From positions 77,132 through 128,346 of the forward strand of contig MU271237.1 in the NCBI GenBank assembly GCA_021432655.1: DNA of 51,215 nucleotides, given 5' to 3'. Numbering within the stretch: the stretch's first letter is position 1; every line of letters begins with the position of its first letter. Below, in pieces: positions 16,462 to 51,215 of the stretch. The notes under the pieces are model-generated. The model saw only the letters and a program-made list of their open reading frames with translations. It ran no database searches and had not been told where the DNA came from. Source of the DNA: Atractiella rhizophila (lineage: Eukaryota). Both the position numbers and the translations under genes were made by a program.

Positions 16462-17892
16462 TAAATGAATAGAACTACTCACCTGTTGTATTGTGATGTG
16501 TAAAAAGCTTTCGTAGCTCTTCAGGTGGAGGCGGGGGAACAGGTAGCAGCACCTTGCCATGGAGACAGCACAATGAAAACTTTGGATTCCGTTGTGGGCT
16601 GTTAACGATCTTCTCTTCCATCCAATGAAAGGCTTTGCAATGTCTACAAAGTAATCCCCAAGTAGAGAGGTGGTGTGCCTCAAGATCCATATCAGGTGAG
16701 TAGTTGAATGCAGGATAGTGATGTTGCCTCATTTCGCCTCGCAACAATGGGACTAATGCCCTATCCTCATCACTGTCCGCACCATCAGGATTAGGAGAGG
16801 ATGGGTGTGATCGGGCTTCTTCTTCACTGTACTCCTCAGGGGAGGGTGAACGCTGTCTCTGATGTCATCGAGCTGGTCGTGACGATATAGACAATGAAGA
16901 GCTTCGACAGCGCCGCTGGCACGGAGCCTTAGTTGATCTTGTCTCATGTTGAGGTGGAGTATGTGGAGTAGGATTGAAACGTGCAGGGCATCGCCTCTCT
17001 CTTATAGGTCGACCTTGGTGTAGTGGTGCCTCCTGCTGCAGACATTGAGGCTGTTTGGATCGGCGCTCTCGATTTCTTGTTTGATTTCTCTGAATTGCAC
17101 GTGGCATGAGAGTGTAGCTTGCTGCACATAACAAAATGATATGAGTGAAGAATATATAAGCCAGAGTCCACACACCTATGCTTTTTTTGCTTGATTTGAT
17201 TTGATGCTAACAGGCTGAGGCATACTATGGTAGACTGTTAGGAAGTATATTTGTGGTGAAAGACACTGTTTCACTTGCACGAATGCTTGCTCACTTTCCC
17301 TCATAGTTGGCAAACAACAGTTTTTGGCGCATGACCTGAGAAATCACAGAGAGCCCTGAAGAAATCACGTGCACACAGTTTGCGGACAACAGGATTTGGC
17401 AGTGACAAAATGTGACATGACTGAGACACGAACCCACACCAGCACCAATCAGTCAAGACTCAACTCCCGACCATATGCCAACTACACCATCACACAAACC
17501 CTTTACTTTGTAGGCTTATTTGATTAGGTAAGGAAATTTTTGTCAAGTGCCGAAGTCAGTCACTTGACTCAGTCAAGGAAGACAACTATTTTTTATCCTT
17601 TAAATAAGCTTTATTGTATATGGTTGGGAAGGTGCTGACACGCATATTCTGGTGGTACGCTCAGAATTTTGATGGGGTTGTTGTGGACCAAGAAGTCAAT
17701 TGAGTCAGTAAGGAAAACAATTTTTTTTCGTCTTTCAAATAGGCTTTGTTGTATACGGTTCGAAAGGCGCCAACACGCGTATTCTGATGGTATGCTCAGA
17801 TTACTGGCAGGCTTGTTGTGGGTGGTCAGAGAAGTGCTCAAAAGTACATGCGTGAGTCATGCTAAAAACCCGTCGTGCTTTATATATAAGGA
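16462..17892 (-). mobile_element. Helitron A, 5' fragment
   Basis: 5' terminus A|TCCTTATATATAAAGC at 17892. Helitron N-terminal Zn motif CRHCKAFHWMEEK...FSLCCLHGKV (16475..16747). Colinear with 49079-50355. Breaks inside an intron. Confidence 0.88.
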
Positions 17893-19210: not shown

Positions 19211-19701
19211 TCCTTATCCTTATATATATCCTTATATATAAAGCACGACAGATTTTTAGCATGACTCACGCATATACTTGAGCACTTCTCTCACCGCTCA
19301 CAACAAGCCTGCCAGAAATCTGAGCATACCATCAGAATACAGGTGTCAGCGCCTTTCGAACGGTATAGTTGGGACTGAGGGCAAGTTTTTCCTTACCTAC
19401 TCAACATCGGATCATTAAGTTAAAGAGTCTGTGCAATGGTGTAGTTGGTGTTAAGTGAGAGTGTGACATAATTTTGTTTTTGGGCTGGTTCGATTCTCTG
19501 TTCCCTCACATTTTGTCACTCTTGAAGCTGTGAGTGCCTGCACACAATTTAACAGATAATGTAGTTCCAAAGAAGTGTTATGAGTACTCAGTCACTGATT
19601 ATCTCTCAGCATGTTCCTAACAGCATAGTCAACCACTTTTTATTGAAAAATAGCAGAAACTCGATGTGGTCCCCCCGAGGGTCGAGGGGCCTCCCAGCTT
19701 G
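19211..19701 (+). mobile_element. Non-autonomous Helitron B (~490 bp)
   Basis: 5' end matches the Helitron A terminus. 19561-19630 matches the helicase stop region at 39394-39463. Ends with GC hairpin GGTCCCCCCGA-GGG-TCGAGGGGCC then CTTG, inserted between A and T. Confidence 0.85.
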
Positions 19702-20800: not shown

Positions 20801-22802
20801 TGTTGCTATCCCTTGCATGTTACACTGTTCTCCGAAAATTACGATCCGATAGCCATCCCTAAGCTTGATTATGTCCCTCTGTGACATGTCCCCAATAGAG
20901 GTAGCAAAAACATCTATATACTCCCTGAGAAGGTCACGAGCTGGCTGTTTCCATTCCTTTGTAAGGTTTGAGCCTTCAGGACCATCTCCAACAATGAAGT
21001 GATCCCTCAGCCTTTCCTATCTTTCTGCCATGCTTTCTGTTCCTGTTCCATTTACTCGACATCATGCTGGTGCTGATGCATCATTGGGTCTTGGTTGTGC
21101 ATTGTCTGAGAGTAGGAGGGGTTCGCTTTTCTCAGGTCGATTTGGGAAACCGCTGTTTCATGATTTCTCCAGGGATCTTGTGTTCGCTTATCTTGCCGTT
21201 AAAAAAGCCTGTATCAGTGAGCTTCCATGTTCCCTCAAAGGCTTCTCAAAATATTGTTGCCATATTGCTGGGGGGTGTTCATCCGTCTAATTCCAGACCG
21301 TGCTTGTTGGCCCTGAAGGTTGAACCCTCGAGCTCCGCCATCTTTTCCGTTGAGAATAATAAACCTGCCCAAAACAAGCCAAGATGGCCAAAAAGTGGTC
21401 AGAAAGTTCCCTGAAAATTTAAACATCCACCACCTTCGAAACTTCTCCCTCCTTCCACTACAATCCTCCTATACATTCAGCAGCTGACAGAATCGACGCG
21501 CTGTCAGTAGTCTCATCAATCCATCTCTCTCCATTTCACTCCTCTCCACCACAACCATATTGCCCAAAGCTCCAAAAGGACCATCGACTACTTGTCTCTT
21601 ATGCCATCCAGACTATGCCAGCATGCCCATCTCCTCACCTCTTAGACCTCCATTATCTCCTCAGAAGCAAACTACGCTTGTCAGCAGGATTCTTGCGACT
21701 CCAGCATCAGCAACTCAATTGACGACGACTCTGCACGCCAATCTATTTGGACAGGTGACGGCCCCTCCTGTTTACGAAAACCCACGTCCTACAACAGCGC
21801 CGATACACTCCAAAACAACGGCCCTGGCCCCAACCCCTCCTGTCATACGAACTGGAACTCAGCTTACAAAAAAGCAGATCGCCGCCTCCACGCTTTCACC
21901 CTCCCCCTCGCTTCATCCCCAAAGAAGAGAAGGCGGAGAAACAGTACTGAGGAGAGCATGCCTCTTCCCTTCTCCAGCCTGCCTTCTCACGGCTCTTCGT
22001 CTGCACCCAACACTCCTGATCATGCCGTTACGAGTCCTTCAAGGAAGCGGGTCCGGTTGGAACGGTTGTTTGAGCTTGGGAATTCTTAGACAACAGAGCA
22101 AGCGGTCAGTGCCTACATTGGAGAACACAATGAGAGGGATTGCTAATACAGGAGTAGGGGTCATCTGTTGCATCCCAGCCTCGCTTATTACCGCCAATAA
22201 CGGTATGACACTTGCTTTGCTTATGGAACAATGCACTGAATGATGAGCAACAGATCACTCATGGTCAATCAGCGCTGCCATCCAGCAACACAACGCCAGC
22301 GCCAATCTCCTCTACCCCTACAACCCAGCCACTTGACTTCGTGAATCCTTCTGTTAATGCAGTAATGGTCAGTACCCCTTCAAACCCGCTCCTCCGTCCA
22401 GGCTGTCCCTCCCCATGTACCTGCTGATTCTGGCCTATAGGAGTCGACTCCCAAAATATTCTGTGAACGATGCGGCGCAGATGATGTTTCGGCTTGTCAG
22501 AAAGCTACGCACCAGCGAGGTCAAGCTTGCCAAAAAGCACTACGGATATCTGAAGCGTTGTGGGTGGCATCCGGAATGTTTGGGTGAACAGCGCCAAGAG
22601 CGCATTACCTTGTCAGATGACCGGCTTGGTATGTCACACTCTGTGAGGCAAGGCAAGGTGGAGCTTATCACTTTTGTGATCAGCTTATGGACCTTCGAGA
22701 GAGCGGAGATGATTCAGGAGAGGATGAAGGAGTGCAGAACGCGGAAGGTGAATTTCTTGCAGCTGAAGCTCTTTTTGCGCTTGGAAACTGGCAAGTCAAG
22801 GA

Positions 22803-23327
22803 ATGTTTGCCCGGTCTCCAAACATCATTCCCATGTTTCCAAACGTGTTCCCACGTTTCCCATCTTTGCAAACGTGTTTCGTAGGTCTCCAAACATCGTT
22901 CCCATGTTTCCGATCTTTGCAAACATGTTTCCCAGGTCTCCACACATCATTCCCATGTTTCCACACGTGTTCCCCATGTTTCCCATCTTTGCATACATGT
23001 TTGCCCGGTCTCCAAACATCATTCCCATGTTTCCAAATGTGTTTCCCATCTTTGCATACATGTTTGCCGGTCTCCAAACATCATTCCCATGTTTCCAAAC
23101 GTGTTTCCCATCTTTCCCATCTTTACAAACGTGTTTCCTAGGTCTCCAAACATGATTCCCATGTTTCCCATCTTTGCATACATGTTTGCCCGGTCTCCAA
23201 ACATCATTCCCACGTTTTGAAACGTGTTTCCCATGTTTCCAAACGTGTTTCCCACGTTTCCCATCTTTGCAAACGTGTTTCGTAGGTCTCCCAACATCAT
23301 TCGCATGTTTTGAAACGTGTTTCCCAC
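22803..23327 (-). repeat. Complex minisatellite of 21-bp and 9-bp modules (array 1)
   Basis: Modules on the minus strand: ATGGGAAACACGTTTGGAAAC, ATGGGAATGATGTTTGGAGAC, CTGGGAAACACGTTTGCAAAG and ATGGGAAAC. Confidence 0.95.
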
Positions 23328-23603
23328 CTCCTACCCTCCCTTCTGTCGGGATTCCGAGAGTCCAGAAACAACCGGTGCGACCGCGATGTGTGGTGGAGGT
23401 GTGGGTGTGAGCAAAATTCGAGGTGGCAGTGGAAGTGTGGGTGCGATTGCAAGTGGAGGCAGTGGCAGAGGTGTACATGCGACGAATGGTGCAGGCTCTG
23501 GACTTGGAACGGGTTGACGTTGGGAATGTGAAAGAGGGAAGAGAGCAGTGGATGGCGGTGAAGATGTTTTTGGAGGCAGCAGTGTGTTCAGATTCATGCT
23601 CAA
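22803..23603 (-). pseudogene. Putative Pro-rich plus MGNTFGN-repeat protein, disrupted
   Basis: ORFs 23331..23603 and 23019..23327 are in one frame, separated by a single TAG. The repeat frame shifts near 23060 and is cut off at 22803. Confidence 0.4.
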
Positions 23604-32588: not shown

Positions 32589-33253
32589 ACATATATCTGC
32601 ACCACCTTTACAAAAACACCTTAACTACCCCAAACCTGGACAAGGTCTGCAAAGCGGTAGTGCACGGGGTCTTAAGAAACCCAACGCTCTTAATAGATGA
32701 AGGGCAATCGGATCGATGGGACGGTGATATACTATCTTGATATCGTAATGTTTTTGGAGGAGGAGGAGAGCGGATTTCCTGGGATAGCGAACCAAACACA
32801 GCCAAATCAGAGCTGCGGGAAGACGTCAGTTGGGAGATTGCCAACGATCTGTGTCCAGAGTAGAAAATTGAACGTGGCTTGAAGAAATTATTGTTAGGAA
32901 AAGTCATTTTGAACATCGTGTGATTGAGGCCATTTTATGAGTTGGAGAGCGCGGAAAGTGAGTTCAATTACCTCTCGAAAGGCCAGTATTTTCTTTGATG
33001 TTGTGCAAAAAGGCTGCGTGTAAGAGAGACAGGGTTGTGTGGTTGTCCTTGGACTGCAAAAGACGATTGAGATCTACATTCACTGGCATTGTGGACGTAG
33101 GTGGCAGAGCAGGGATTCCAAATAACCTTCACACGTATCTTGGGTGAAGGATAGACAGATAGACATGCTCTCTGTGAGCTGCATATGAGGAAGCGGAAGC
33201 AATAGCTTGTGACGAGCTTTCGAATGTGATTTCCACTTGACGATCATAAGCCT

Positions 33254-35991
33254 TTGTCTCCTTCTCTTGACCGAGCTACCACACCGACCCTTGAACAGAT
33301 TATGCTTCAAGCCAGGCACCTTCTCAAAGTGACAGAAGATGAAGATCTTCGTCCCTGCGATATTTTCTGTGGTACTTCCACCGGTGAATGGATCGTGCTT
33401 ATGCTCGGCAGGTTGGGAATGATTGCAGCGTACAAAGAGATCATGGAGAACGTATTTTTGAATAACGTCTCAAGCGCCAGCGACGAGTACGCTTACTCGG
33501 CAAAAAAACTCGAAGAAACTTTGACCGCTATCATCCAGCGACAAAACTCTAAGGAGTCTCTTCTGATGAAAGATGCTTCCTTGCAGGACAGATGTAGAAC
33601 GTTCGTGGTTTCTACTTATGAGTCCAACGTTGTCGTTTCCACAGCGATGCGTACATACGATATTCGTGCTGCTGGATCCTCACCATTTATGCCTGCCTCC
33701 GCTTATACGGTCTGGGAAGCTGCAAGGGTGACTGCCGCTGCACCTCCATTCTTCCCTCCTATCAACATAGATTCCACTGAGTACGTTTCGCTAATTCACG
33801 ACAATCCTACCGCAATAGCTGTCCATTCGACAAAGCGCATTTGGGGACACAGCTGTGAGATTGCCTGCCTTGTGTGTCTCGGCTCTGGAATTGCACCTGC
33901 CCTCAAGTTGGACAATGTTGAGCGAGCTTTGAAGGTGATAGCTGAGGATTGCACAAGGGTTGCGAACACCATGAAGATGAAAATGCAGCGATGTCAGATG
34001 GGCCACTGCTACCATCGTTTCTCAGTTGATACGTTCAGAGATTTCAGGTGGGAAGAATGGGAACGAAAGAATGAAGCTGTGGGATGCACGAAGGCTTACA
34101 TGGATGCAATGTGTTATGAAGTGCTCCTTGCTGCTCAATCGCTAGTGAAAGGTATGTTCCTCCTGGTTGCCATTGCATGCGTATGCTCACTTTCTACTTG
34201 TCAGCTTGCAACCATCGTATTGCAGTGTACAAGAAGATTCCATTACCCGCTCCCTGCGCTTGTTACGGAAGAGAAGAGGAAGTTCAGAAAGCGACCGACT
34301 TCATCGCCACCGATCAGAGGCACCTTGCCATTATCGGCTGCGCTGGTAACGGCAAAATCTACGGTCGCACTAGAAGTCTTGCATGCAGATGAAATCAGGA
34401 GAGAATTCACGACTGTGAAAGATGGGAACGAAGAAGATTTTCGTTTTTGGGGGCCGATGTGACACTTTCTCTGATTTCTCCTCGCTCTCCGCCTACCTCT
34501 GCAATGACGTTTTTGGGTTGGCTCCCCAACCTGGAGAAAATGACCTTGCCGCCGTAGCGAGATATTTCCAAGCGCACAAGTGTATCCTCTTCTTGGATAA
34601 TTTCGAGACCCTGCATGCTCGGACATGAATAACCTGCAACCATTCTTCCAATCCTTCCTTCAAGTTTCCAAAAGCTGCCCTTCTGGATCCACTCTTGTTG
34701 TAATACATCAGGGCCATCAGATCGAACGTGTCAATTTGACAAGGGTCAAGAGGTGATGATCCGTCGCTTGAGCAACGATGCTGGGTTAGACTTGTTCAAG
34801 TATATGTACACCGCTGGGAATGAAGCTCGCCTAGATCAAGAGCAACTCGTCCAGATGATTCTCACTAAGCTTGATCATCATGCACTGTCCATTAAGCTCT
34901 TTATTCTTCACGCCAATGCAGAATCAACTGCGCCGCTCGCAGTTTTGGTGCAGGAGTGGGAGGCAAAGAAGACCATCCTTCTGTAGGATGAAGATAGTGA
35001 GGAGACGCACAGTTTTGCAACGTCGATATCTTTTTCCCTCAATTCACCTCTTCTCAGAAAACATGAGGACCTTAGCGCTTTTATCCTTGCTCTCTTATCG
35101 TTGACGCCTGATGGTCTTCTTGTGGATGACATTGAAGCTATCATATGTAGTGATGCTGCTCATCATTCAGAAAAGACTTCCATACTCATCACCTCAATCT
35201 TAGCCGTCAGTCTTGCTGAAATTGCCACAGATGTCCTCATGAAATCACCAAGATTGCGCATGCTCGCGCCAATTCGCGAACACATCAACCGCTTGGTCTT
35301 GCGTCCAGTTCCACCTTTTAAAATCACTGCTTTATCGCTTGAGCCGTTGACTATGGGTCTCATCAATAAAGCTCGTAAAAATGTTCGACGATTCCAAGAT
35401 GGAGCTGACTGGATCGGACTGCGGTCGTTTCGCAACGATTATCCAAACCTTGAATATGTCCTTCTAGCTGCCTTTCAACGCCTGGATGATCGGACAACAC
35501 CATACATCTTCCTAGCAGAAACCTGGAGTTTTCTGTATCATCAAAGCCTTCTCTCCATGGCACTTTTTTAGTCCGCTTTATTCTACACCAGATCCATCTC
35601 TGTTATGTCACTGACCGCTGGATTGACGCTGGCCCTTGGATCAGCATTTCGACTGAAGGGGAGCCTACAACAGGCGCTTATCCGGTTCGAGGAGGCCAAG
35701 GAGTTGTATGTGGTTGTGGAAAATCAGCGCGGACGTGCCCGCTGCATTCGCGGCGAGGAGGAGATCGAGCAGGGTCGCGCGCATAATGAAGAAGCGTTGA
35801 AACAGTTCGAGGAGGCAAAGGAGCTGTATATGATTGTGGAAGATCAGCAGGGCCTTGCCCACTGCATTCGCGGTGTGGGGGAGATCGAGCGTTGTCATGG
35901 GCGTAACGAGGAAGTGTTGAAATGGTTCAAGGAGGCGAAGGAGTTATATATGGTTGTGGAAGATGTGGGAGGTCAACAATATGGGCATTAA
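33254..35991 (+). pseudogene. Fungal NLR-like gene: patatin-like phospholipase + P-loop NTPase (STAND) + TPR
   Basis: Patatin RPCDIFCGTSTG (GxSxG) and AAPPFF. Walker A HLAIIGCAGNGK/STVA is split by a frameshift near 34355. Walker B ILFLDNFET. C-terminal 40-aa TPRs. In-frame TAG at 34984 and 35569. Confidence 0.88.
35686..35970 (+). repeat. Highly similar 120-bp (40-aa) TPR tandem repeats, ~2.4 units
   Basis: TTCRAGGAGGCNAAGGAGYTRTATRTGRTTGTGGAA starts at 35686, 35806 and 35926. Confidence 0.9.
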
Positions 35992-36655
35992 TGCCATTGG
36001 TAACAGCGTGAATTATCCAAATGGCCAAAAGAGCGGTTGGACCAGAGAAGTGCTTGACGTGAGGTTAAGTTAAAGTAGCTCCTCTCCCCTTTAGCGGTAC
36101 TGGATTCAGTGCCTAAACCTCAGGACTGTCCTGGCGCTGGACCTACGATGAGCACTTGGTTTGTGTACGGCCGCGCCAAAGTTGCTGATAAACAGGCCCA
36201 AACATTTCCGCTAACATGCTGTCTTGTACTGAATCAGGTGTTCTCTTCCTCTCAGCAGTGAGACCAATTGCTCAGAAGCTTCGGTTGAGTTCCCTCTTTG
36301 CACTTATGAATCGGCGGTGCAGCCAAGTGTTGGTTCCATGGGATTTGACTGTGCTCGTCATTGAGGGTTGGGGTTCGCTAGTGAATGAAAGGAGATAATT
36401 AGATATTGAAAGAGTTGGACGAATAGAAACTCTCCTTGGGGGCTTTGAGGATCCAATTGGCGAAGGAACTCTCAAAGACATTTAGGACTGTTATCATTAG
36501 GGAAGGCGGTGGGGGCGTTTTGGTCAGAGAAATTCTGCAACCCTCTTAACAATGTCACGATGAGACAAGGCGGCGGTGCTTGGTGGATCAAGAAAGGAGG
36601 GCAGCAGAGTTTCCCAGTCGAAGAGTTGGATGGTGCCGTCTGGAGAAGTGACATT

Positions 36656-39600
36656 TACATATCTGAGAGAGAGGAACAATCATTATAGAGTCAAAGGCAT
36701 TTCCAGAGCATATCAGGGTATTCAATAATGCTTTTTGCCTTTATATCCTTAGGCGTCTGCCAGGTATCAATTCCTGGACATGGTCCCTACTCCTTCAAAA
36801 TTCAGGGAGAGCTGTGCCACCTTATTGGTACTCTTTTACCACAACAAGGGTATGAAACATTTGCACAGGTCTACATTACAGATTCAGCTGTACAGACTGA
36901 ACAAAGAGTTGGCAACACTTCAGTCTCACTGACTCATAGTACGCTTGAAGACCTTCAGACTATGCTCTTCCACATGTCAACCCATATCCCAGGATCTACA
37001 AATTTGCAAAAGAAAGAATGGAACAGGATCCCACTACAACACTACATCTTTGCACAGTCGCCCCACGAGATAGGGACCCAAGACACTACAACATTCCTGT
37101 AGCCAGTGAAGTTGCTGTAGTGATGGTAGGAGACGGTAACAGAGAAGAATATGGAGTGGCCAGAGATATTATCATCCAGCTCAGGGCAACCACAACTGGT
37201 AGCAACTTACAGCGTGTCAATGAGCTCAACCCAAATTATCTTCCACTTCGTTTTCCTCTTCTGTTTCTATATGGGGACCGAGGATGGCATCCGCAGATTC
37301 CGTATCGAGACCTGCCTGCAGATCTTCCTCCTCGCGAGCGAGAGCACTTCAATGATGACGGCATGCAAGTTGGTAATTCTGGGGTTCGACAACGTGTCAG
37401 CCAAATGGAGTTCTATTTTTACATGTTGCATCTACGAAATGATATATTCTCACTCCCTCTCTATGGTGGTCAGCTACTGCAGGAATTGGTAGTCGATGCT
37501 TATGCTCAAATTGAGGCAAATCAACTCCGCTTCTGCAGTTCCATCAGTCTATTCTTTGAGCTGAGGTATATCAGGGTCTTATGGATGCCCTTGCAGAACG
37601 CTATTCTTTAGAAGATATCGGGAGGCAGACTATACTACCATGAGGTTTCACTGGCAGTCCACATTCAATGAATCAGTTGTTCTAGGATGCAATGGGTATA
37701 GTTGGTGCCAAAGGACCTCCAAATATCTTTACAACCTTCACTTGCAACCCACACTGGGCAGAGATCACGGAAGCCCTCCACCCAGGACAAAAACCAGAGG
37801 ATCAACCAGATTTGGTTTCAAGGGTTTTCGACTGAAGGCTCTGGAGTACATCAAGGATTTAGTGGTACGACAGATCTTTGGAAGGGTTATCGGATATGTC
37901 TGGGTCATTGAATTTCAGAAGAGAGGTCTATGACATGTGCACATCCTGAAGATCTTTGGGAGTTGCCAGCAAACCATTATAACTGATTTGAAAACATTAT
38001 GACAAGCTCAAGGACAATCGCGCTCATCTTCTGCAAATAGTTTATGGAATCGCTACACCTTCTGAAGACCAGATCCAAGACTCATGCCTTATTAAGGTAG
38101 AGGATCTGCTACATAGTCTAGGTGAGATACTAGAGGAGTATAGACTGCCATTACCTACCTGGATGTTTGGACGATGGGGAAGAGAGAGACAAGAATAATC
38201 GGAGAAAGAACTGGGTACAGCATTACAGAGCTGAAGCAGCACCTTGATAGGGATCTTTCTCTTATGAATGAGGATCAACGACACACATATGATACAATCA
38301 TTGAAGCCTGCCAGAATGGTACTGGAGGACTCTTCTTTCTTGATGGGCCTGGAGGAACTGGAAAGACTTTTGTTCAGAATCTTATAATGGCAAGAGTAAG
38401 ATCATCCAAGAAGATTGCACTAGCAGTAGCCTCTTCTGGAATTGCTGCTATTCTGCTTGAGGGTGGCTGTACGCTCATACACGATTCAAGATTCCCTCCA
38501 ATGCAGATGCTCAATCAGTTGAGGTATTTCAGCTCAAAGTGATCATGGAAGGCTATATGTTGAGGCAGAAATTATCCTGTGGGATGAAGCCATTATGAGT
38601 GATCAACTATCAGTCAACTATGTGGATCGATTTGGGACAGGATCTTAAAAAGGATTCAAGACCATTTGGAGGAACACTGACGGTTTTCTGTGGTATGATA
38701 CTTCCCTCATAGGAGATGGGATTTAGTGGTATGACAGATCTTTGGAAGGGTTATTGGATATGTCTGGGTCATTGAATTTCAGAAGAAAGGTCTACCACAT
38801 GGCCACATCATGTGGATGGCATCAACGATCGCTTGATTCAGTGGCTCAAATCCATAGGAAATCGGGTATATTATAGTGCAGATCAAATTATAGATGACGA
38901 GGGAGATCTCAGAAATCACTTCTCTGTTGAGTACCTGAATACCCTGGAGATCTCTGGATTCCCTTCACATTGTTTACACCTCAAGATCGATGCACCCATA
39001 ATTCTTCTGCGAAATCTCAATCCATCTGCTGGCCTGTGCAATGGCTCACGCCTCATAGTCACTCAGCTTCTCCGGCGAGTCATTGAAGCAACCATCATTA
39101 CAGGTGCACATAGTGGCGAATCAGTTCTCATTCCTCGAATCAGCATTGACAGTGCAGTATCAAACCAGCTTCCTTTTCAATTCCAGCGCTTTCAATTCCC
39201 TGTGCACTTAGTGTTTGCCTTAACTCTGAATAAAGAGCAAAGACAATCTGTTGGACATGTGGGTTTGTACTTAGAATCTTCTCCTTTGTCTCATGGGCAG
39301 CTTTATGTTGGTCTTTCACAGGTTTCAAATGCAAACAATTTACGAGTATTGGTCAAAACAAAGCAAGGAGAAGAAAACAAGCAAACAGATAATGTAGTTT
39401 ACAAGGAAGTGTTATGAATACTCAATCACTGATCATCTCTCAGCATGTTCCTAACAGTATAGTCAGAGACCACTCGGCTTTCATTGTTTTTTTTTTGAAC
39501 ACAGTAGAGTACATATGGTGAGTCTGTGCTCACTGAAGGCGTGGCCCCATGCAGTGGCTGCCAGAGGCAAGAGCTCCACGCAGTGGCCGCTGGAGGCTGA

Positions 39601-39661
39601 GGTCCAAGGGGCAAAGCCCCTGGCGGGGGGATGCCCGAGAGACAAGCGCCTGACACGCTTG
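36656..39661 (+). mobile_element. Helitron C: Rep-PIF1 helicase pseudogene with 3' end, lacking the 5' part
   Basis: Rep motifs TFTCNPHW and VIEFQKRGL*HVHI. Helicase motifs FFLDGPGGTGKTF, LWDEA, LRNLNPSAGLCNGSRL, SHGQLYVGLS and NVVYKEVL*. Terminal hairpins GGGGC-AAA-GCCCC and ACAAGCG-N7-CGCTTGT, ending CTTG|T. Has internal deletions. Confidence 0.92.
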
Positions 39662-39694
39662 TTGAGGAGAAAAGACATTTTACTGATATGCTTG

Positions 39695-39774
39695 TGCTGG
39701 ATTTAGCCAATTGCACTAAAATGACCAGTCATTCCCAACAGTGCAGATTAACCCTTTATACCCAAGGTTCAACA
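39695..39774 (-). mobile_element. Solo LTR of the 80-bp TRIM family
   Basis: 79/80 identical to the TRIM LTR. 5-bp TSD GCTTG at 39690-39694 and 39775-39779. Confidence 0.95.
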
Positions 39775-40163
39775 GCTTGCACTTTCCTTTTACTACAACT
39801 GTCGACATCTTCGATTCTTACCATTGATGAATCCACAGCTTCACCAAATCATTCCACAGACGAGCGTATATGGCGCACAATCCACGAAGAGATAGGGATG
39901 ATGGGACGATCTTGACCATTACACATCGACTGGAAACCATTATTGACTGTGAGCTTTACTCCTCCCTTTCCAAATGAAGACAGTGATTTTATCTAGAGGT
40001 TAAATTTTAGTTTTATCATTATTGGTGGTTGCCTAATCTACGACCTGCTTGTCGTGGAAGGGCATGCCCGAGGGACGTGGGCAACACTGACACACTTGTT
40101 ATTTCTAAGGATTGATGATAATCCGTCATGTTGTACGCGGGCAAGAGTCACTAAGTACCTTCT

Positions 40164-40770
40164 CTACTCCCAAATGCCTGACTCCACACTACTTCTGTGC
40201 TTCCCTATCATGCTCCTTGCAATCACAATCTCCTCCTCCCTCCACTCACCAAAGAATAAACAAACCTCAAGATGCCAATCTATCCCCATTCCATCAACCT
40301 GATCCCCCTTCTTGATCCCCCTCATACGCCAATCCCCAAAGAACCAGCAGATGAAGTCTGAGAAGTCGAACAAGTCCACCGCACAGTACTTGAGTGTTAT
40401 ATGATATATTCCTGTTGCATTTTTGAGTGTGCCAAAGAACTGGCAAGGAATGAGGTTTGAAGCTTCTTCACCCCCATCGAGGATTAGCTGGGTGAGGGAC
40501 GCTACGTCAAGCAGAGTGGTCAGGATGGAGGTCTTTCCTCTAACAGAGAAGGCGGCAAGCTCGACCATGAGATGCTCCAGAAGGGGTGGCAGAGGGTGCT
40601 CTGAGATGGATGGAGGGAGGGGACACAGAGTAGAGAGAACCAGGGATTCTAAGTTGTGTGGGAGGGAGAGCGATGGGATTGGCGGGAATTTGTAAAGGGT
40701 TAGGCATCTGACGTTGGGACGGAATTGAAGGCCTGTTGAGAATGAAACTGGAGAGTCTCCAACCGTTGGA
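40164..40770 (-). pseudogene. Leucine-rich-repeat-like (F-box/RNI-like C-terminal) gene fragment
   Basis: Periodic LxxLxL pattern: LQRLETLQF, NVRCLTL, NLESLVL, LLEHLMV, SLTQLIL. The annotated ORF start lies inside the TRIM LTR. Confidence 0.45.
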
Positions 40771-40786
40771 GTTCTTTGGAAAAGAC

Positions 40787-41130
40787 TGTTGAGCCTTGGG
40801 TATAAAGGGTTAATCTGCACTGTTGGGAATGACTGGTCATTTTAGTGCAATTGGCTAAATCCAGCATGGTAGCGAGAGCTGACCCTGCATACCCGGGTTC
40901 GAACCCCTGTCTGAGCACTTTAGCCATATTGTGAGAGTGGGGAAAACCACTATGAAAACTGTTGAGTGGGTGCTCTTCCCCACTATAAATGATGGAAGGG
41001 AATGGTTGTGGCAGGGAAAGTGGTTGCAGACAGTACAGATTAGGGAAGGGTGTTGAGCCTTGGGTATAAAGGGTTAATCTGCACTGTTGGGAATGACTGG
41101 TCATTTTAGTGCAATTGGCTAAATCCAGCA
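40787..41130 (+). mobile_element. Complete miniature LTR retrotransposon (TRIM-like), 344 bp
   Basis: Identical 80-bp LTRs at 40787-40866 and 41051-41130 (TGTTG...CAGCA). PBS TGGTAGCGAGAG at 40867-40878. PPT AGGGAAGGG at 41042-41050. 5-bp TSD AAGAC at 40782-40786 and 41131-41135. Non-coding 184-bp interior. Confidence 0.96.
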
Positions 41131-41755
41131 AAGACTTGCTGCACAATCTGTTCGCACGCACGGATGCATTCTTGAACGGTCATTCCCAATCGTCCAAGCA
41201 TGAGGGCAATCCATCCTCCCGTAGAACGGTAGAAGTGCCACAAATGAGATCGAAAACATCGCAGGGTCGAACCTCTTCTCCCTCAGGAACTCCGAGGAGA
41301 TCTCCAATTTGGAGCATGATGACTTGGAGCATGTAAAGTGTGGAAAAGGTACAGATGCCACCGTTGTCGATAGCGAGGATTCGGACGCCTTGGTCGTTCA
41401 TCTTCTTGACATTGCCGGGGCTTGGAAAATCTTGACGGCTTGAACTTGGGAGTGGCTGGGGGATGAGAAAAGTGTTGGAGTAGCAGCTCTGGAGGCAATG
41501 GGCAATGTGGTACGCGATAGGAAGCCAAATTGTTGGCCAAAAATCGTCGGTTTGGCAGTCAGGAAACGGCTGGGTCGAGAGTACAGCTGCAATACTGAAA
41601 GATTTTGACACTCCAATGCCTTCGTTAGACTGTGGAACATGTCGCAAACCGGCGGCGAATGCGTTGTCGTCGTCAGATAAATTCCCAGGGTCTTCATCGT
41701 CGCTGGGATTTAATGAAGAAGGTTTAGGCGTCTTTCTGAAGGCTGAGGTGTCCAT
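41131..41755 (-). pseudogene. N-terminal patatin fragment (second NLR-like copy), interrupted by the TRIM
   Basis: GVRILAIDNGG, RPCDVFDLICGTST, a frameshift, then GWIALMLGRLGM...EQIVQQV. The frame continues as FSKE after removing the TRIM and one TSD. Confidence 0.85.
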
Positions 41756-43247
41756 CGCCTAGAACACAAGATGAAATGAGGACAATTGACCGAGAACTCC
41801 TTGTTGAACGTGAGATACCAAACTGAGGAAATAGGTCAGATCTGGACTAGAGCTGCGAGGAGGGAGAGCATCGAAAGGATAGGTGAAACTGACTCTGAAG
41901 AAGAAACAAGGCAGTAGAGCCCATTCCTATTCAAAGATCCACGCCCATGGAAGAACATTCCTTACGAACGCGAGGACGTAAGGATAAGAAGGGGAGGTCA
42001 ACTTAGGACAACTTGAACCATTTGTCAACTTGCAAGACGGTGGACCGAACGCTGGGAAGAAGAAAGATGTCACGATGAACCAACTGCCTAAGAATGGCAG
42101 TTGTGGATATGCATTTGAGTTTGGATCAATGGAGATATGAAGCCTGCACAACTTGAATATCGAATTGACAAGTACATCTCTCATCTCATCATCGACAGGG
42201 CAAGTGTCAATAAAGACTCACATGCGAGACTTTCTTCGACCGATCGCGTAGTAACAACCAACTGCTGGCACTTGACACTCAACGCGCAAAATCCAGGAAC
42301 AATTTGCTCTCCCGCACAGCATGAGAGAGATGCAGAGAGGGTTCGTCGGTTGATGTAGACAAGGCTCGATTCTCGAAAACCCTCGTCCACCTGATGTTCA
42401 ATATTGATGGCGATCTTGACCTGATTCGTAACACGGATCCGGGGCCATCATCCCAGCAGCGAATTCCAACCCTCTTGCCCTTGCTCCACCCTCCCTGTCG
42501 CTCCTGTCATCATGCAAGCTAGGCTGCATCGAATTCTTCTTTGTAGCTGATTTGCCCCAGCACTGGAGATCAAAATCTAGCAATGGAACTGTCAGAGAAA
42601 CTATACAGAAAGCATGCGATGGCTCACCAATGATCTCATCATCCATCCAAGACTTGAAATTCTCATCATTGCTTTGACTTTTTCCACTATCAAGCTTTTG
42701 AGTGTGTTTTCTAGAAGATCGACGAGGCGAACCTCCTTCATCCTCAGATGCATTGAGGGCAACAGGGTGCAAAGCAGGAGTGATGTCTTGCCTTTGTGGG
42801 TCTCTTAACTCTTCATGAGGGACCTTTGAAGCATGGCTCCCCTCTTTTATCTGCGAGCTTTTCATGCTTGCCTGTAACTCTTTTGTATGTCAGGCATTGA
42901 GATTACTGACATTCCAGTTTGGTTGTACTCCTTCAGAGCGACTCTTCCTGGTGATTGCTTTTCACTTAAATTTCGTGAAGTTCTTATCGCTTCTCAGGCA
43001 CTCTTTTCCACACCTGTAGTTCGAAAAAGGACTCACGTGCCCACCGTATTTGCGCTGCGAAGGATATTTAGAAGGTGACTTGGTTCATATTGCATGGCCA
43101 GCCATCTCACGGCCGCGCCGCTTGTTTCGGTTCCAAGTTCCCAGTCCCTGTCGTCCCTGGGTTACTTTTAGGCAATTTGGTCACTTGTTAGCCTAAATCA
43201 GGCTTTTCGGTCATTTTTGGTTGCTCTACCTCTGCTCTCAAACCCTA

Positions 43248-46200
43248 CTATGGGTTACGGAGATATTGAACATACCTAGATATTGAACACCATATATTAA
43301 AATTTTTCAAATATACATCAATTCCTTAGCTTTTGTATATTCAGGATCACCTACTATCCACGCACATTCTCACAAAATATCTAACCGGTTGTGGAATCGG
43401 TCTTTGAGATATTGTAAAAAATGACATCGCTCCTAAACCCCCAGATTTCTAAGAATCTACATGCAAATTCATATCTTTTTTGTGCTCAGATTCAAACAGA
43501 AGGCTCAGAAGCAACTTCTCATTGTTTGAAAGTGATTGGTCAAAGTGGGGCCAGATGGTCAGTTGTTGAAAGTTGCCAATGCTCAGCTCCACAGATGCGC
43601 AACAGACTGCGCAATAAAGTTAAATTGCGCACTTTGACACGACCTTTTGGGTCACATGGTGCCGGAAACACGGACTTGGACTTGTTATTCATAACGCGCT
43701 GTCCCCAGTCGCGACTTCGACGCAGTTCCTTCCTCTCCAGCACACGGCAGCATCCCTCAAATGCCCCCAAAGAAGAAGGAGTTAACAGAGGAGGACTGGG
43801 TGGCAAGAAAGGAAAGAGATTTGGTGGAGGCAGCAGACATTTACTGGAAGAGTCAAAAAGAAGAGCAGATCAAGAAGGGGTGCGCACTTTCCTATCGGCA
43901 AGTGGCACAGCGGTATTCCTATCCAGATGGAAAGGGTGGTTTTGTGTTTATGAAGAATACTACTCTCAGGAACCGCTGTCAAGGAGGATTAAATGCTGTT
44001 GAGAGTCACTTGAGCCAAAGATTATTAACTGAAGGCGAAGAAGAAGGTTTAGTTGACTGGCTTCGATGGGTTGGGGATTCTGGACTTCCTCTTAGTAAAA
44101 GAGGCCTATATTTGGTGGTCAAGAAGATTGTTGGAACACGGCCAGGACATGGATGGTACTATTGTTTTATGAAGAGGAATGGGAAAACGATCAAAAGCTT
44201 CATAGCAAACCCTCTTGATCTGAAACGAGCAGAAGCTTTCAATCGGAGGAATGTGCAATCTTATTATGATCTGCTAGAAAAAAAGATTGAGGAGTATGGC
44301 TTATTAGCAGAAGATATAACAAATATGGATGAGAAGGGTTTGCAGTTAGGAGGAGGCCGCAAGATGGGGATGCGACGAGTAATTGGACCTGCGGAGCGAC
44401 AGGCTATCTATCGTGCGAAGTCAGATAAGCTAGAATTGATCACACTCATTGAGTGTATTTCTGCAAGTGGGCAATCGCTGAACCCACTCTTTATTTTCTC
44501 GGGAAAACGGTATCAGAAAGGCTGGCTCCAAGGGTTGACGGAACAACAGAGGGACGAGATTCTGTTCATCTTTCTCTATATCCATTAGTGGAGTGTTGTT
44601 GACAATAAAATTGCTTAGCGTGGCTGTTTCCGAAAATGGTTGGACAGATGAAGTACTTGGCTATCTGTGGTTCACGCTGGTCTATGTACCATGGGTTAAC
44701 AGCCGGGCAGATCCAAGACGTCCCTGCCTTCTTATTGTCGATGGCCATGGCTCTTACTCGTCGGCACTCATTATCCGCTACGTTTGGGAACATCTTCACA
44801 ATACCGTCCACATCATTTGCCTGCCGCCACACACGACGCATAAACTTCAACCGTTGGACGTCGGTGTTTTTGGACCAATCGGAAAGGCCTGGAGCCAGGT
44901 CACGGACGATATGCTTGAAGAAGGACGTGATATTTCAAAGAAAAACCTCATTTCAAGGTATTTGAAGTGTCGTGCAGATGGTCTGAAGCCATCAACAATC
45001 GTCAACAGGTGGAGAGCCACTGGTGTTCAAGTTGATGATCTTTCTGGAGCAGTATCAATTGATCGCAATCACTTCACAGAAGCTGATTTTGCACCAGCTC
45101 GGTATTCATCAACACGCACACAGTTTCCAGACTGCATTCCTTCCGACCTTCTCAACTTTGACGATCCTGCTCCTACCGAAACACCTACCTCTCCCTCTCT
45201 GCAAGATGATAACAAAGCAGATGGTATCCAGGTTAGGGATATTGCCCCAGAACCATCGACAATTCATGCCGGATTCCAGCTTATCAACCTCCACACCTCA
45301 CAAGCCTACTCAGATCAAGAACTCGAGGCTCGCAAATTTCCCATAATCCGGTTGCCTCCCATTTCATCTGCTTCCAATGCCGGTAGCGACATTGATCAAC
45401 TGCCAGATAACCCTCCGCAATCACAGTCCGCTCCCTCCTTATCTTGTACTCCCATCCAACCGACTAATCCCGATGTAACCATTCCAATCTCCTTAACCAG
45501 TCCAATCAGGCCTCGTGATTTCTATCCAAAGAAACCACTTACGATCTTCCGAGGTCCAGATGGGAAGAAGATCCAGTTGACAAGTCACAGTGACCCTGTC
45601 CTCCTATTCCAAGCTCTATCTGCCTTAGATTCGGAACTTCATCAAACTCGTCGTCGGGAAGGAGTGTTAAGGACGTCGGTTCACATGGGTGTGAGGGAGA
45701 ATGCGTAGCTCCGGATGTCATTGGAGTCCAAGAGGAAGCCTGGGAAGAAAACAAAGTTAGTTACAACTGCACGGCTGTTGAGCGGGAGTGAAGCATACAG
45801 GCAAATGGAAGCCCAAGAGAAGGAGGCAGCAGATAAGGCAGCGGAAGATGTGAGGAAGAAGCAGGAAAGGGCGATGAAAGCAGTTGAGAGAGCAGCGGAG
45901 AAGGCAGAAGAAGAAGCAAAGAAGAAAGAAAGAGCTGAAGAGAGAAAGAGGAAACAGAAGGACCGGGAAGAAGCTAAGAAAAACAAACTAATGCAGAAGC
46001 GGGGCAAGACAAATGGAACAACACCTCCAACATCTCTCCCACAATTACGCTCTCTCACCCATTCCACATATGCCACTGCTTCAAGCTTGGCAGCAGGTGA
46101 CCGTACATTGTATTTGACAATCAAACCAATCCAGTGTTGATTAGGGTTCTAGGCCAACTTCCTGGTCCTTCAGACCCCACTGAATCGCAACAAAAGCGAA

Positions 46201-46566
46201 AATTACCTGACAGCAGCTTCCCACGATCCCCCATACCTCCGAAGCGCCCATTCGACCCGACCTCGCATCCAACCCACGATCAGAGTCACCACTTACAAGT
46301 CCAATCCATGCAACAATTGCATACTCCAACTTCCCAGATTCAATACCTTGGTTCCTCCAGCCTAATGTACCACAGGATCATTGGAACAGTCTCCCCGGTA
46401 ACCACCTTCAATTTGGACATTTTCAGCAATGACGAATGGAGGCTCTAATTTTCCCCAGCATTCAAGTTAGAACTACAGTCAGCTTTATAGATGGCAACAG
46501 ACTTACTTATAATCTATAAGTTATGCAAACTTCATCATAGGTGCTTTCTGAGCTGTCTTGATTCGA
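43248..46566 (+). mobile_element. pogo/Fot1-like (Tc1-mariner) DNA transposon, right end truncated
   Basis: Candidate left end TA|CTATGGGTTACGG with a direct repeat AGATATTGAACA at 43261 and 43278. No right TIR before the junction with Helitron E. Confidence 0.7.
43761..46140 (+). pseudogene. pogo/Fot1-type DDE transposase with HTH/CENP-B-like domains
   Basis: LSYRQVA...TTLRNR, LLTEGEEEGLVDW, NMDEKG, SENGWT, LIVDGHGS, LPPHTTHKLQPLDVGVFGP. Intron at about 44564-44618. One in-frame TAG (45706-45708) before the K/E-rich tail. Confidence 0.9.
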
Positions 46567-49071
46567 ATACTGCACTGTCAATGCTGATTCGAGGAATGAG
46601 AACTGATTCGCCACTATGTGCACCTGTAATGATGGTTGCTTCAATGACTCGCCGGAGAAGCTGAGTGACTATGAGGCGTGAGCCATTGCACAGGCCAGCA
46701 GATGGATTGAGATTTCGCAGAAGAATTATGGGTGCATCGATCTTGAGGTGTAAACAATGTGAAGGGAATCCAGAGATCTCCAGGGTATTCAGGTACTCAA
46801 CAGAGAAGTGATTTCTGAGATCTCCCTCGTCATCTATAATTTGATCTGCACTATAATATACCCGATTTCCTATGGATTTGAGCCACTGAATCAAGCGATC
46901 GTTGATGCCATCCACATGATGTGGCCATGTGGTAGACCTTTCTTCTGAAATTCAATGACCCAGACATATCCAATAACCCTTCCAAAGATCTGTCATACCA
47001 CTAAATCCCATCTCCTATGAGGGAAGTATCATACCACAGAAAACCGTCAGTGTTCCTCCAAATGGTCTTGAATCCTTTTTAAGATCCTGTCCCAAATCGA
47101 TCCACATAGTTGACTGATAGTTGATCACTCATAATGGCTTCATCCCACAGGATAATTTCTGCCTCAACATATAGCCTTCCATGATCACTTTGAGCTGAAA
47201 TACCTCAACTGATTGAGCATCTGCATTGGAGGGAATCTTGAATCGTGTATGAGCGTACAGCCACCCTCAAGCAGAATAGCAGCAATTCCAGAAGAGGCTA
47301 CTGCTAGTGCAATCTTCTTGGATGATCTTACTCTTGCCATTATAAGATTCTGAACAAAAGTCTTTCCAGTTCCTCCAGGCCCATCAAGAAAGAAGAGTCC
47401 TCCAGTACCATTCTGGCAGGCTTCAATGATTGTATCATATGTGTGTCGTTGATCCTCATTCATAAGAGAAAGATCCCTATCAAGGTGCTGCTTCAGCTCT
47501 GTAATGCTGTACCCAGTTCTTTCTCCGATTATTCTTGTCTCTCTCTTCCCCATCGTCCAAACATCCAGGTAGGTAATGGCAGTCTATACTCCTCTAGTAT
47601 CTCACCTAGACTATGTAGCAGATCCTCTACCTTAATAAGGCATGAGTCTTGGATCTGGTCTTCAGAAGGTGTAGCGATTCCATAAACTATTTGCAGAAGA
47701 TGAGCGCGATTGTCCTTGAGCTTGTCATAATGTTTTCAAATCAGTTATAATGGTTTGCTGGCAACTCCCAAAGATCTTCAGGATGTGCACATGTCATAGA
47801 CCTCTCTTCTGAAATTCAATGACCCAGACATATCCGATAACCCTTCCAAAGATCTGTCGTACCACTAAATCCTTGATGTACTCCAGAGCCTTCAGTCGAA
47901 AACCCTTGAAACCAAATCTGGTTGATCCTCTGGTTTTTGTCCTGGGTGGAGGGCTTCCGTGATCTCTGCCCAGTGTGGGTTGCAAGTGAAGGTTGTAAAG
48001 ATATTTGGAGGTCCTTTGGCACCAACTATACCCATTGCATCCTAGAACAACTGATTCATTGAATGTGGACTGCCAGTGAAACCTCATGGTAGTATAGTCT
48101 GCCTCCCGATATCTTCTAAAGAATAGCGTTCTGCAAGGGCATCCATAAGACCCTGATATACCTCAGCTCAAAGAATAGACTGATGGAACTGCAGAAGCGG
48201 AGTTGATTTGCCTCAATTTGAGCATAAGCATCGACTACCAATTCCTGCAGTAGCTGACCACCATAGAGAGGGAGTGAGAATATATCATTTCGTAGATGCA
48301 ACATGTAAAAATAGAACTCCATTTGGCTGACACGTTGTCGAACCCCAGAATTACCAACTTGCATGCCGTCATCATTGAAGTGCTCTCGCTCGCGAGGAGG
48401 AAGATCTGCAGGCAGGTCTCGATACGGAATCTGCGGATGCCATCCTCGGTCCCCATATAGAAACAGAAGAGGAAAACGAAGTGGAAGATAATTTGGGTTG
48501 AGCTCATTGACACGCTGTAAGTTGCTACCAGTTGTGGTTGCCCTGAGCTGGATGATAATATCTCTGGCCACTCCATATTCTTCTCTGTTACCGTCTCCTA
48601 CCATCACTACAGCAACTTCACTGGCTACAGGAATGTTGTAGTGTCTTGGGTCCCTATCTCGTGGGGCGACTGTGCAAAGATGTAGTGTTGTAGTGGGATC
48701 CTGTTCCATTCTTTCTTTTGCAAATTTGTAGATCCTGGGATATGGGTTGACATGTGGAAGAGCATAGTCTGAAGGTCTTCAAGCGTACTATGAGTCAGTG
48801 AGACTGAAGTGTTGCCAACTCTTTGTTCAGTCTGTACAGCTGAATCTGTAATGTAGACCTGTGCAAATGTTTCATACCCTTGTTGTGGTAAAAGAGTACC
48901 AATAAGGTGGCACAGCTCTCCCTGAATTTTGAAGGAGTAGGGACCATGTCCAGGAATTGATACCTGGCAGACGCCTAAGGATATAAAGGCAAAAAGCATT
49001 ATTGAATACCCTGATATGCTCTGGAAATGCCTTTGACTCTATAATGATTGTTCCTCTCTCTCAGATATGTA
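46567..49071 (-). repeat. Right arm of a 2,505-bp inverted duplication (left arm 36656-39160)
   Basis: Paired coordinates sum to 85727 at both ends and for each mirrored ORF checked, implying no net indels. Mirrored ORF translations are identical within the arms. Confidence 0.97.
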
Positions 49072-49637
49072 TATGCAATAAATTGAATAGAAGTACTTAC
49101 CTGTTGTATTGTGATGTGTAAAAAGCTTTCATAGCTCTTCAGGTGGAGGCAGAGGAACAGGTAGCAGCACCTTGCCATGGAGACAGCACAATGCAAACTT
49201 TGGATTTCGTTGTGGGCTATTACCGATCTTCTCTTCCATCCCATGAAAGGTTTTGCAATGTGTACAAAGTAATCCCCAAGTAGAGAAGTGGTGTGCCTCA
49301 AGATCCATATCAGGTGAGTAATTGAATGCAGGATAGTGATGTTGCCTTATTTCGCCTTGCAACAACGGGACTAATGCCCTATCCTCATCACTGTCCACAC
49401 TATCAGGATCAAGAGAGGATGGGTGTGATCGGGCTTCTTCTTCACTGTACTCCTCAGGGGAGGTGAACGCTGTCTATGTCATCAAGCTGGTCGTGACGAT
49501 ATAGACAGTGAAGAGCTTTGACGGTGCCACTGACGCTGACGTGGAGCCCTAATTGATCTTGTGTCATGTTGAGGTGGAGTAGGATTAAAACGTGCAGGGT
49601 GTCGCCTCTCTCTTACAGGTCGACCTTGGTGTAGTGA

Positions 49638-49717
49638 TGTTGAACCTTGGGTATAAAGGGTTAATCTGCACTGTTGGGAATGACTGGTCATTTTAGTGCA
49701 ATTGGCTAAATCCAGCA
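49638..49717 (+). mobile_element. Solo LTR of the 80-bp TRIM family, inserted in Helitron E
   Basis: 5-bp TSD AGTGA at 49633-49637 and 49718-49722. The paralogous empty site is visible in Helitron A at about 17011-17035 (GACCTTGGTGTAGTGGTGCCTCC). Confidence 0.96.
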
Positions 49718-50701
49718 AGTGATGCCTCCTGCTGCAGACATTGAGGCCGTTTGGATCGGTGCTCTCGATTTCCTGTTTGATTTCTCTGAATTGCACGTGG
49801 CATGCGAGTGTAGCTTGCTGTACATAACAAAATGATATGAGTGAAGAATATATAAGCCACAGTCCACACACCTATGCTTTTTTTGCTTGATTTGATTTGA
49901 TGCTAACGGGCTCAGGGATACTATGGTAGAGTGTTAGGAAGCATACTTGTGGTGAAAGAAACCGTTTCACTTGCATGAATGCTTGCTCACTTTCCCTCAT
50001 AGTTGGCAAACAACAGTTTTTGCCGCACGACCTGAGAAATCTCAGAAAGCCCTAAAATTTGCTTTCATGCAGTTTGCACACAACAGGATTTGGCAGTGAC
50101 AAGATGTGACATAACTGAGAATCGAACCCGCACCAAGACCAATCCGCCAAGACTCAACTACCAACCATACTCCAACTACACTATCGCGCAAACTTTTTAC
50201 CTTGCTGACTTTTTTGAGTAGGTAAGGAAATTTTGGTCAAAGTGTCGAAGTCAGTCACTTGACTCAGTCATGGAAGACAACTATTTTTTCTCCCTTAAAT
50301 AAGCTTTATTGTCTACGGTTGGAAAGGTGCTGACACGCGTATTCTGGTGGTATGCGATGGGGTTGCTGTGACAACTTGCTGCGAGTGGAAGTACTGCAAG
50401 CTGATGAACGTCGAATTTTCCTTGCCACTTATTCCCAGAGAAGCTGGATGAAGACTGCGCTCCGTATGCTCAGGGACAAAGGGATAACTGTCGGCAATCC
50501 GTGTGAGTGGGTGGAGGAACAGTGGCTAGGGGAAGAAGTCATGAGGCTGCTGGAGGATAAATTGGGCCGCACTTGATCTGCAATCTCCGCCGACCAAATG
50601 CAACTTGCGGATCTATTTTTGTGGATTTCAGCGTTGATATGGGATCTGGGAAGCAAGCTTGCGATTTTTATCCGAATCAAATGTGACTATGAACGTTTAC
50701 A

Positions 50702-51215
50702 ACGTATGCAAAGATGGGAAAGATGGGAAACACGTTTGGAAACATTGGAATGATGTTTGGAGACCGGGCAAACACGTATGCAAAGATGGGAAACACGTTT
50801 GGAAACATGGGAACGATGTTTGGAGACCTACGAAACATGTTCGGAAAGATGGGAAACATGGGAATGATGTTTGGAGACCTGGGAAACACGTTTGCAAAGA
50901 TGGGAAACAGGGGAAACGCGTGTGGAAACGTGGGAAGGATGTTTGGAGACCTACGAAACATGTTTGCAAAGGTGGGAAACATGGGAAACACGTGTGGAAA
51001 CATGGGAACGATGTTTGGAGAGAAACACATGTGGAAGCATGGGAATCATGGGAAACACGTGTGGAAACTTGGGGATGATGTGTGGAGACCTACGAAACAT
51101 GTTTCCAAAGATGGGAAACTTGGGAAACATGTTTGGAGACCTACGAAACACGTTTGCAAAGATGGGAAACATGGGAACGATGTTTGGAGACCTGGGAAAC
51201 ACGTTTGCAAAGATG
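50702..51215 (+). repeat. Complex minisatellite of 21-bp and 9-bp modules (array 2), runs off the window
   Basis: Same modules as 22803-23327, in the opposite orientation. Confidence 0.95.

Follow-up and report, generated by a model that had tools for sequence, protein, structure and literature searches.

Introduction

TRIMs in their usual definition (PMC6934838) have been tabulated in fungi as well as in plants, with entries for Boletales (PMC5689174) and Cochliobolus (PMC4112212) and 113 Helenus families in rust fungi (PMC10886601), so that the view of an earlier note on the present locus, that they are described mainly from plants and a few animals, does not hold. Small size is likewise no distinction: the smallest plant TRIM is 233 bp with 52-bp LTRs (10.1101/010850) and SMART of grasses is 292 bp (PMC3281118), which argues against the same note's description of our element as unusually small. 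Plant TRIMs in general are below 1 kb and have a PBS, a PPT, solo LTRs, chimeras with foreign LTRs and an autonomous partner that usually cannot be traced; they concentrate near genes and are scarce in heterochromatin, unlike the TRIM described here (10.1101/010850, PMC13570524). SMART (FRetro129) resembles it in having 85-bp LTRs, a 5-bp TSD, solo LTRs and a proposed copia partner, but differs in its 96% interior identity with that partner and in favoring genes, where our TRIM shares only the PBS with copia elements and favors copia nests; the accessible part of the SMART report mentions no Pol III boxes (PMC3281118).

Helenus, which belongs with the TRIMp3 class, is the closest known kind. 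Fungal Helenus elements have been proposed to be Pol III-driven and copia-mobilized, with a 5-bp TSD and a PBS shared with copia, both also present in our TRIM, and with a complete tRNA-like unit, boxes A and B included, within every LTR (104-323 bp; Table S1 in PMC10886601). Kojima (2024) notes that Pol III activity is validated for Cassandra only, and that how the helper dependence of TRIMs is maintained is not known (PMC10886601). Cassandra, the sole such lineage with demonstrated Pol III transcription (PMC7215508, PMC10886601), is like our element a TRIM with a Pol III promoter, but this promoter is of the 5S type and lies wholly in each LTR of a plant-only element of 565-860 bp (PMC7215508).

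We analyze here a window of 51,215 nucleotides, the whole stretch of DNA under study, from the genome of Atractiella rhizophila. This species is a root-associated basidiomycete. In contrast to Helenus, the TRIM in the window places box A in its 80-bp LTR and box B in the interior, with the att site and the PBS between them, and because box B lies outside the LTR we do not file it as Helenus. Atractiella is not among the taxa in the available part of the Helenus survey, and the U3, PBS and PPT motifs of the TRIM have 0 matches in the Helenus sequence file that was searched, where the box motifs return unrelated matches (PMC10886601). The family is apparently new to the literature, as the earlier note had suggested, although small fungal TRIMs are already known and 344 bp is no record; among the published papers compared, none describes this TRIM family. 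In the literature on Atractiella transposons, fungal TRIMs at centromeres, TRIMs with a B-box, TRIMp3 and internal-region Pol III promoters we likewise found no paper that describes a promoter split between LTR and interior.

Results and discussion

A 344-bp TRIM inserted in a patatin-like gene copy

The gene-less 344-bp element is a TRIM, a non-coding LTR retrotransposon (Table 1). Its LTRs are identical at 80/80 positions and enclose an interior of 184 bp, bounded by a PBS that adjoins the 5' LTR and a PPT that abuts the 3' LTR, all as first described. The 15 nt of the PBS match the 3' terminus, CCA included, of a host tRNA whose gene has the anticodon CAT; this gene was located by a pattern search of the organism's own genome, and from its initiator features we take it to be initiator tRNA-Met. 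The longest ATG frame on the sense strand encodes 35 aa, and coding capacity is absent; an antisense frame is open across the whole element (40787-41130, minus strand) in 5/10 copies and is broken by a 1-bp insertion in the others, has no Pfam match over the cut-off, and is probably due to chance.

Table 1. Positions in the window of the TRIM, its parts and its related insertions.
Feature	Position	Strand	Basis or remark
Left TSD, AAGAC	40782..40786	+	Sequence; single copy at empty paralogous sites
5' LTR, 80 bp, TG...CA ends	40787..40866	+	Sequence comparison
TATA-like TATAAA in U3, LTR positions 15-20	40801..40806	+	Sequence; function inferred
T4 run of 5' LTR	40840..40843	+	Under Pol III model must be read through
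Putative Pol III box A (tRNA positions 8-19) in U5, LTR positions 57-68	40843..40854	+	tRNA weight matrix
PBS, 15 nt	40867..40881	+	Complement of 3' end of host initiator tRNA-Met (presumed)
tRNA 3'-end-like segment (T-arm, acceptor 3' strand, trailer)	40893..40921	+	Host tRNA comparison
Putative Pol III box B	40896..40906	+	Weight matrix; within 12-bp palindrome 40895-40906
Polypurine tract	41037..41050	+	Sequence; abuts 3' LTR
3' LTR	41051..41130	+	Identical to 5' LTR; box A without box B behind
T4 run of 3' LTR	41104-41107	+	Candidate Pol III stop
Right TSD, AAGAC	41131..41135	+	Sequence
Solo LTR 39695-39774 with own 5-bp TSD	39690..39779 including TSD	-	Sequence
Solo LTR 49638-49717 with own 5-bp TSD	49633..49722 including TSD	+	Sequence; empty paralogous site near 17021-17025
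Patatin-like gene copy, 5' part, interrupted by TRIM	41136..41755	-	Paralogue comparison

All 11 patatin paralogues examined have an empty site with one AAGAC each, so the TSD of the full copy is genuine. Independently of the TRIM insertion, the interrupted gene copy is out of frame beyond its GTST motif, owing to an 8-bp duplication at about 41221-41228. The two solo LTRs of the window do each have a 5-bp TSD of their own. For the one at 49638, the empty paralogous site that had been reported is indeed present, at about 17021-17025, but its placement in a Helitron is not supported: the repeat that contains the site is situated just upstream of a MULE/SWIM transposase ORF, and in this repeat we find no Helitron domain, its two short ORFs being without a Pfam match.

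Several minor properties of the window copy are recorded here. Position 7 of its 5' LTR has a private A>G change that is also present in the 3' LTR. All four of its private substitutions are A>G on the sense strand (40793/41057, 40954, 41000 and 41015), one of them in both LTRs; RNA editing or a reverse-transcriptase bias could account for these changes, with a 5' U at only one. Base pairing is possible between U5 and the leader region that surrounds the PBS, and sub-region folds are not significant (z -1.2 for this pairing, and -0.9 and 0.2 elsewhere), while the whole-element value of -3.65 is inflated by LTR-LTR pairing. A U3-U5 hairpin of the TRIM's own LTR family, A, was considered as a conserved feature and set aside because it is absent from A', a sister family described below.

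A multi-copy family with sister LTRs and recombinants

We find 41 matches to the TRIM in the 51.5-Mb assembly, and a U5 motif search gives 39 LTR copies. Of the insertions they represent, 8 are full copies (344-345 bp), 20 are solo LTRs or truncated ones and 3 are chimeras, a census of full against solo copies that the earlier note had proposed. Target sites could be scored for 25/28 non-chimeric insertions, with three dropped for a contig edge, an N run and a truncation; 18 have a perfect 5-bp TSD, 2 a TSD with one mismatch, and 5 are recombinant, with flanks from different places. The full copies differ from one another by 3-12 bases, and in two copies a private change is present in both LTRs, which fits the prediction for reverse transcription though gene conversion could produce the same. 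These data support the conclusion, in agreement with the original reading, that the TRIM is a non-autonomous, multi-copy family moved by integrase and reverse transcriptase.

The age of the family is less tightly bounded than identical LTRs might suggest. The LTR pair is identical in 5/8 full copies, and the pooled LTR difference of 6 in 640 corresponds, at a fungal rate from PMC5689174, to about 4.5 My; at the same rate a single identical 80-bp pair, with 0/80 differences, allows up to about 18 My and is therefore weak evidence of recency. Recent mobility is plausible, but the signs of recent activity that had been read from the identical LTRs are not diagnostic.

Two sister LTR families of 78-79 bp, A' and A'', accompany the TRIM (loci L031, L032, L036, L037, L039, L040, L041, L159, L160 and L161). 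A' is represented by nine 78-bp solo LTRs, most with a 5-bp TSD, and no interior of it survives; A'' consists of a decayed LTR and PBS in two copies of one locus, followed by a different interior that contains a long hairpin.

The three chimeras, L045 (G000:C211), L046 (C665) and L034 (C336), join the TRIM to copia family B or C at or near the shared PBS. As products of co-packaging they do not convince. For two, an inversion or a deletion between the PBS copies of nested loci accounts for the structure equally well; the third lacks a TSD, and its U3 regions do not match. We therefore do not count them as evidence for a helper. A further rearranged locus, L132 (G000:C608:10561-12057), has a 1.3-kb piece of copia C, turned round, between two inverted TRIM solo LTRs; because one target-site word is split between these two LTRs, we read it as an LTR-mediated inversion. 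The TRIM LTR and PBS thus serve as recombination substrates inside copia nests.

Four of five listed sequencing runs were examined across 39300-42300. Run X1 shows both TRIM junctions with no variant letters, but is not an independent confirmation because it may be the source sample; its depth on the TRIM interior is about 30 times that of unique junction contigs and is not a copy number here. Run X3 has matches to patatin paralogues and to 179 nt of the TRIM, with no joint spanning the TRIM site among the 15 of 19 matches listed. Runs X4 and X5, from two metagenome studies, contain low-depth (3-4) contigs with TRIM LTR and interior (40787-41050) at about 99% identity, with internal deletions of 16 bp and 50 bp that spare box A, the PBS, box B and the PPT; one X5 contig runs five bases into the 3' LTR, with the start of a copia C LTR. 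The evidence of these contigs is weak, and they may include errors. A 23-nt PBS pattern has no match in metagenome contigs, a collection from which records near the organism's own genome may be excluded.

A tRNA-type box pair split across the LTR edge

By sequence, the two boxes of a tRNA-type Pol III promoter lie on opposite sides of the TRIM's LTR edge: box A belongs to U5, and box B follows the PBS. Weight matrices for the two boxes were built from 30 distinct host tRNA genes (63 found, 36 stretches used, of which 3 failed an orientation filter and 3 duplicates were left out). The TRIM pair scores 29.5 bits, in the middle of the 21.7-32.6 of the host tRNA genes, and its spacing of 54 bases falls in the host range of 43-74; this is a complete box A and box B at working spacing, as in TRIMp3 elements, from which Pol III transcription may be predicted. 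None of 1500 shuffles reaches the TRIM score (maximum 21.3), the LTR plus leader of all eight copia representatives used as controls scores 7 bits or less, and 4 other pairs of at least 24 bits occur in 518 kb of repeat-rich DNA.

Box A alone is reached in score by 20, 0 and 2 of 2000 shuffles for the three LTR families. Both sister families have box A at the same LTR position, with variable bases that differ and invariant ones that are kept; in the alignment of A with A' the box A stretch is the most divergent part, yet the invariant TAG, A and GG are retained.

Box B is unchanged in 10/10 interiors, but these differ by only 1-3.5% and are too alike for selection on box B to be inferred. A 13-mer around box B occurs at 7 places outside the TRIM, 6 of them T-arms of host tRNA genes. 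Of the host tRNA genes compared, three intron-bearing tRNA-Ile(UAU)-like ones most resemble the 29-base segment around it, agreeing at 24, 24 and 23 of 29 positions, and beyond box B they match at 12-13/16 positions against 2-10 for 32 other genes; this likeness is partly selected, since it was found through the same motif. ARAGORN does not call the tRNA-like unit of the TRIM, a relaxed run giving only implausible long-intron calls, and Rfam models have no tRNA or 5S match in 39000-51215 at E up to 1, so that the TRIM lacks the 5S rRNA-derived LTR sequence of Cassandra and Ajax. The only runs of at least four T in the TRIM are one T4 per LTR, just at box A; among host tRNA genes the first T-run is a T4 in 6/30, and 23/30 end in T5 or longer.

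Two more box A plus box B pairs of about 28 bits are present in the window, at 19437-19500 (+) and at about 50120-50183 (-). Both sit at the edges of DNA-transposon-like repeats and are possible SINE or tRNA relics.

Target sites point to copia families B and C

The PBS pattern has 78 matches in the genome, spread over at least seven LTR families; 46/78 were scored, 3 of them TRIM copies, and the unscored ones that were inspected are B, C or TRIM. The five PBS-sharing families that were scanned are all of copia type; an open frame of 1504 aa is present in one B copy. Families B and C are 72-74% alike and have a common PPT, from which the PPT of the TRIM differs.

We find that the left flank lies in B or C for 17/25 TRIM insertions, compared with 0/21 PBS-bearing copies of families D-H (p 9e-7); the comparison used 150 nt of flank for each TRIM insertion and up to 500 nt for control copies, two of which had short flanks. 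With full TRIM copies only, 4/8 are in B/C (p 0.003). B and C copies themselves have a left flank in B/C in 13/22 cases, and 65 PPT-LTR junctions put the share of the assembly taken up by the two families, roughly, at under about 1%. None of the three TRIM insertions of the window is in a B/C nest. The base composition of TSDs in B and C, from 8 and 4 sites, is too sparse to compare.

The LTR ends speak both for and against a link to B. In its favor, the U5 end of the sister A' LTR equals the U3 end of a B subfamily at 10/10 bases; against it, the TRIM's own family A has a U3 end that matches 7 bases (9/12) at the U5 end of family E. The TRIM interior has no significant likeness to copia families B-H beyond the PBS. 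An apparent likeness to the family D leader was rejected (p 0.05-0.10 among 18 comparisons), the best overall being family H (p 0.013).

In a separate observation, the LTRs of copia B-H (L110, L111, L118, L115 and others) contain a short GT...AG intron-like insert, with copies that have it and copies that do not; the 3' part of the insert repeats the stretch that precedes it.

A model for transcription and mobilization, and its alternatives

We lean towards a model in which the TRIM is copied in trans by copia enzymes and transcribed by Pol III from the split promoter, with B and C as likely helpers. The promoter would be complete only where the 5' LTR meets the interior, and the TRIM RNA would be made there by RNA polymerase III. 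Pol III initiation takes place about 12-20 nt upstream of box A; a start at this distance would require that the T4 run of the 5' LTR be passed part of the time, and a stop at that of the 3' LTR would give an RNA of ~280 nt with a short R of roughly 13-19 nt. Initiator tRNA-Met would then prime reverse transcription, and integration, with the self-nesting target preference of B/C, would yield the 5-bp TSD. Solo LTRs and 3' LTRs would be silent because box B is missing from them.

The boxes themselves probably function in Pol III transcription, to judge from their score and spacing, which match those of working tRNA genes. Two features speak for a different reading: the T4 run falls within the first 20 nt of the predicted Pol III RNA, and TATAAA in U3 permits transcription by Pol II. 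The element could be an ordinary TATA-driven Pol II TRIM whose boxes are left over from a captured tRNA or SINE, or act as a self-complementary loop for dimerization or packaging, or as an insulator that binds TFIIIC and protects the element within heterochromatin. Box B lies inside a 12-bp palindrome, which 51/2000 shuffles also have, and three published Helenus families, whose LTRs already contain complete boxes, have similar GGGTTCAAT-type hairpins in their interiors (PMC10886601), so box B could be a packaging stem-loop. A'', the only PBS-bearing sister, lacks box B (best 0.6 bits), and the pairing of U5 with the leader noted above would also fit a Pol II element, despite its modest z. We consider the Pol II reading rather unlikely, however, as the TATA-like box is altered to TACAAA or TGCAAA in the nine A' LTRs whereas box A is near-perfect in most of them, and as the palindrome is shared by no copia leader tested, only family D having a TTCGAA core.

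With regard to helpers, B and C quite likely serve the TRIM, although the different PPT, the short terminal match to family E, the unequal flank lengths of test and control, and the position of the three window insertions outside B/C nests weigh against them. Mobilization by any iMet-primed copia, with the excess in B/C nests reflecting survival in gene-poor DNA, is suggested by the occurrence of the PBS in at least seven families, by the lack of interior homology to any PBS-sharing family, by the 8/25 insertions outside B/C, and by the generalist mobilization proposed for plant non-autonomous elements (PMC13570524). Families D-H would be under the same selection and yet 0/21 of their copies are found in B/C, TRIM flanks have no match to D-H representatives, and the terminal 10-bp identity is between the sister A' LTR and B; we thus hold a dedicated helper to be the better account and its absence unlikely. 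Far less probable still is an origin of the TRIM by a single internal deletion in an autonomous element that has the same LTR. Such an element is hinted at by G000:C336, in which the last 31 nt of a TRIM LTR and the PBS precede a copia B gag, but its B-type U3, B-type 3' LTR and missing TSD mark this locus as a recombinant. At 8 separate sites, every other TRIM LTR with a PBS behind it continues into the interior of 184-185 bp, and a search with the PPT plus the LTR start gives 29 matches, of which 9 are TRIM copies and 20 unrelated. Nowhere in the assembly does a pair of TRIM LTRs have gag-pol between them, the arrangement that the earlier note had named as contrary to a non-autonomous family.

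Taking the Pol III model with B/C helpers further, we put forward only tentatively that the TRIM represents an undescribed Pol III-driven LTR design, in which the integrase site and PBS stand where a tRNA gene has its anticodon arm and the helpers are tied to the element by targeting and LTR ends, without interior homology. If this is true, a promoter that exists in intact copies alone, and there only in the 5' LTR, would need no strand- or end-specific switch, and the split would let the LTR shrink to 80 bp and silence solo LTRs. A working split promoter would be a simple means for an LTR element to distinguish its 5' LTR from 3' and solo LTRs, and would point to a class of Pol III TRIMs that escapes screens of the kind by which Helenus was defined, which look for tRNA-like LTRs; with inactive boxes, the element would be an ordinary small TRIM. 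A 344-bp element in a culturable fungus, whose RNA ends can be tested and whose co-targeting can be measured, offers a handle on the Pol III activity and helper dependence of TRIMs.

Other features of the window

The patatin-like genes of the window, the interrupted copy and one at 33230-35991, belong to a large paralogue family with 40 scored matches of 84 candidates; a repeat-like helical sequence follows the copy at 33230-35991. On the minus strand from 1992, a PBS-like site for the same initiator tRNA is followed by gag-like sequence, which indicates another LTR element at the left end of the window. A 2.5-kb Helitron-like segment with a Pif1 domain is present as two inverted copies (36652-39160 and 46567-49075) that are 99.96% identical, the second abutting a MULE-linked repeat at 49081. 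Two inverted arrays of 21-bp and 30-bp units are located at 22800-23330 and 50700-51215.
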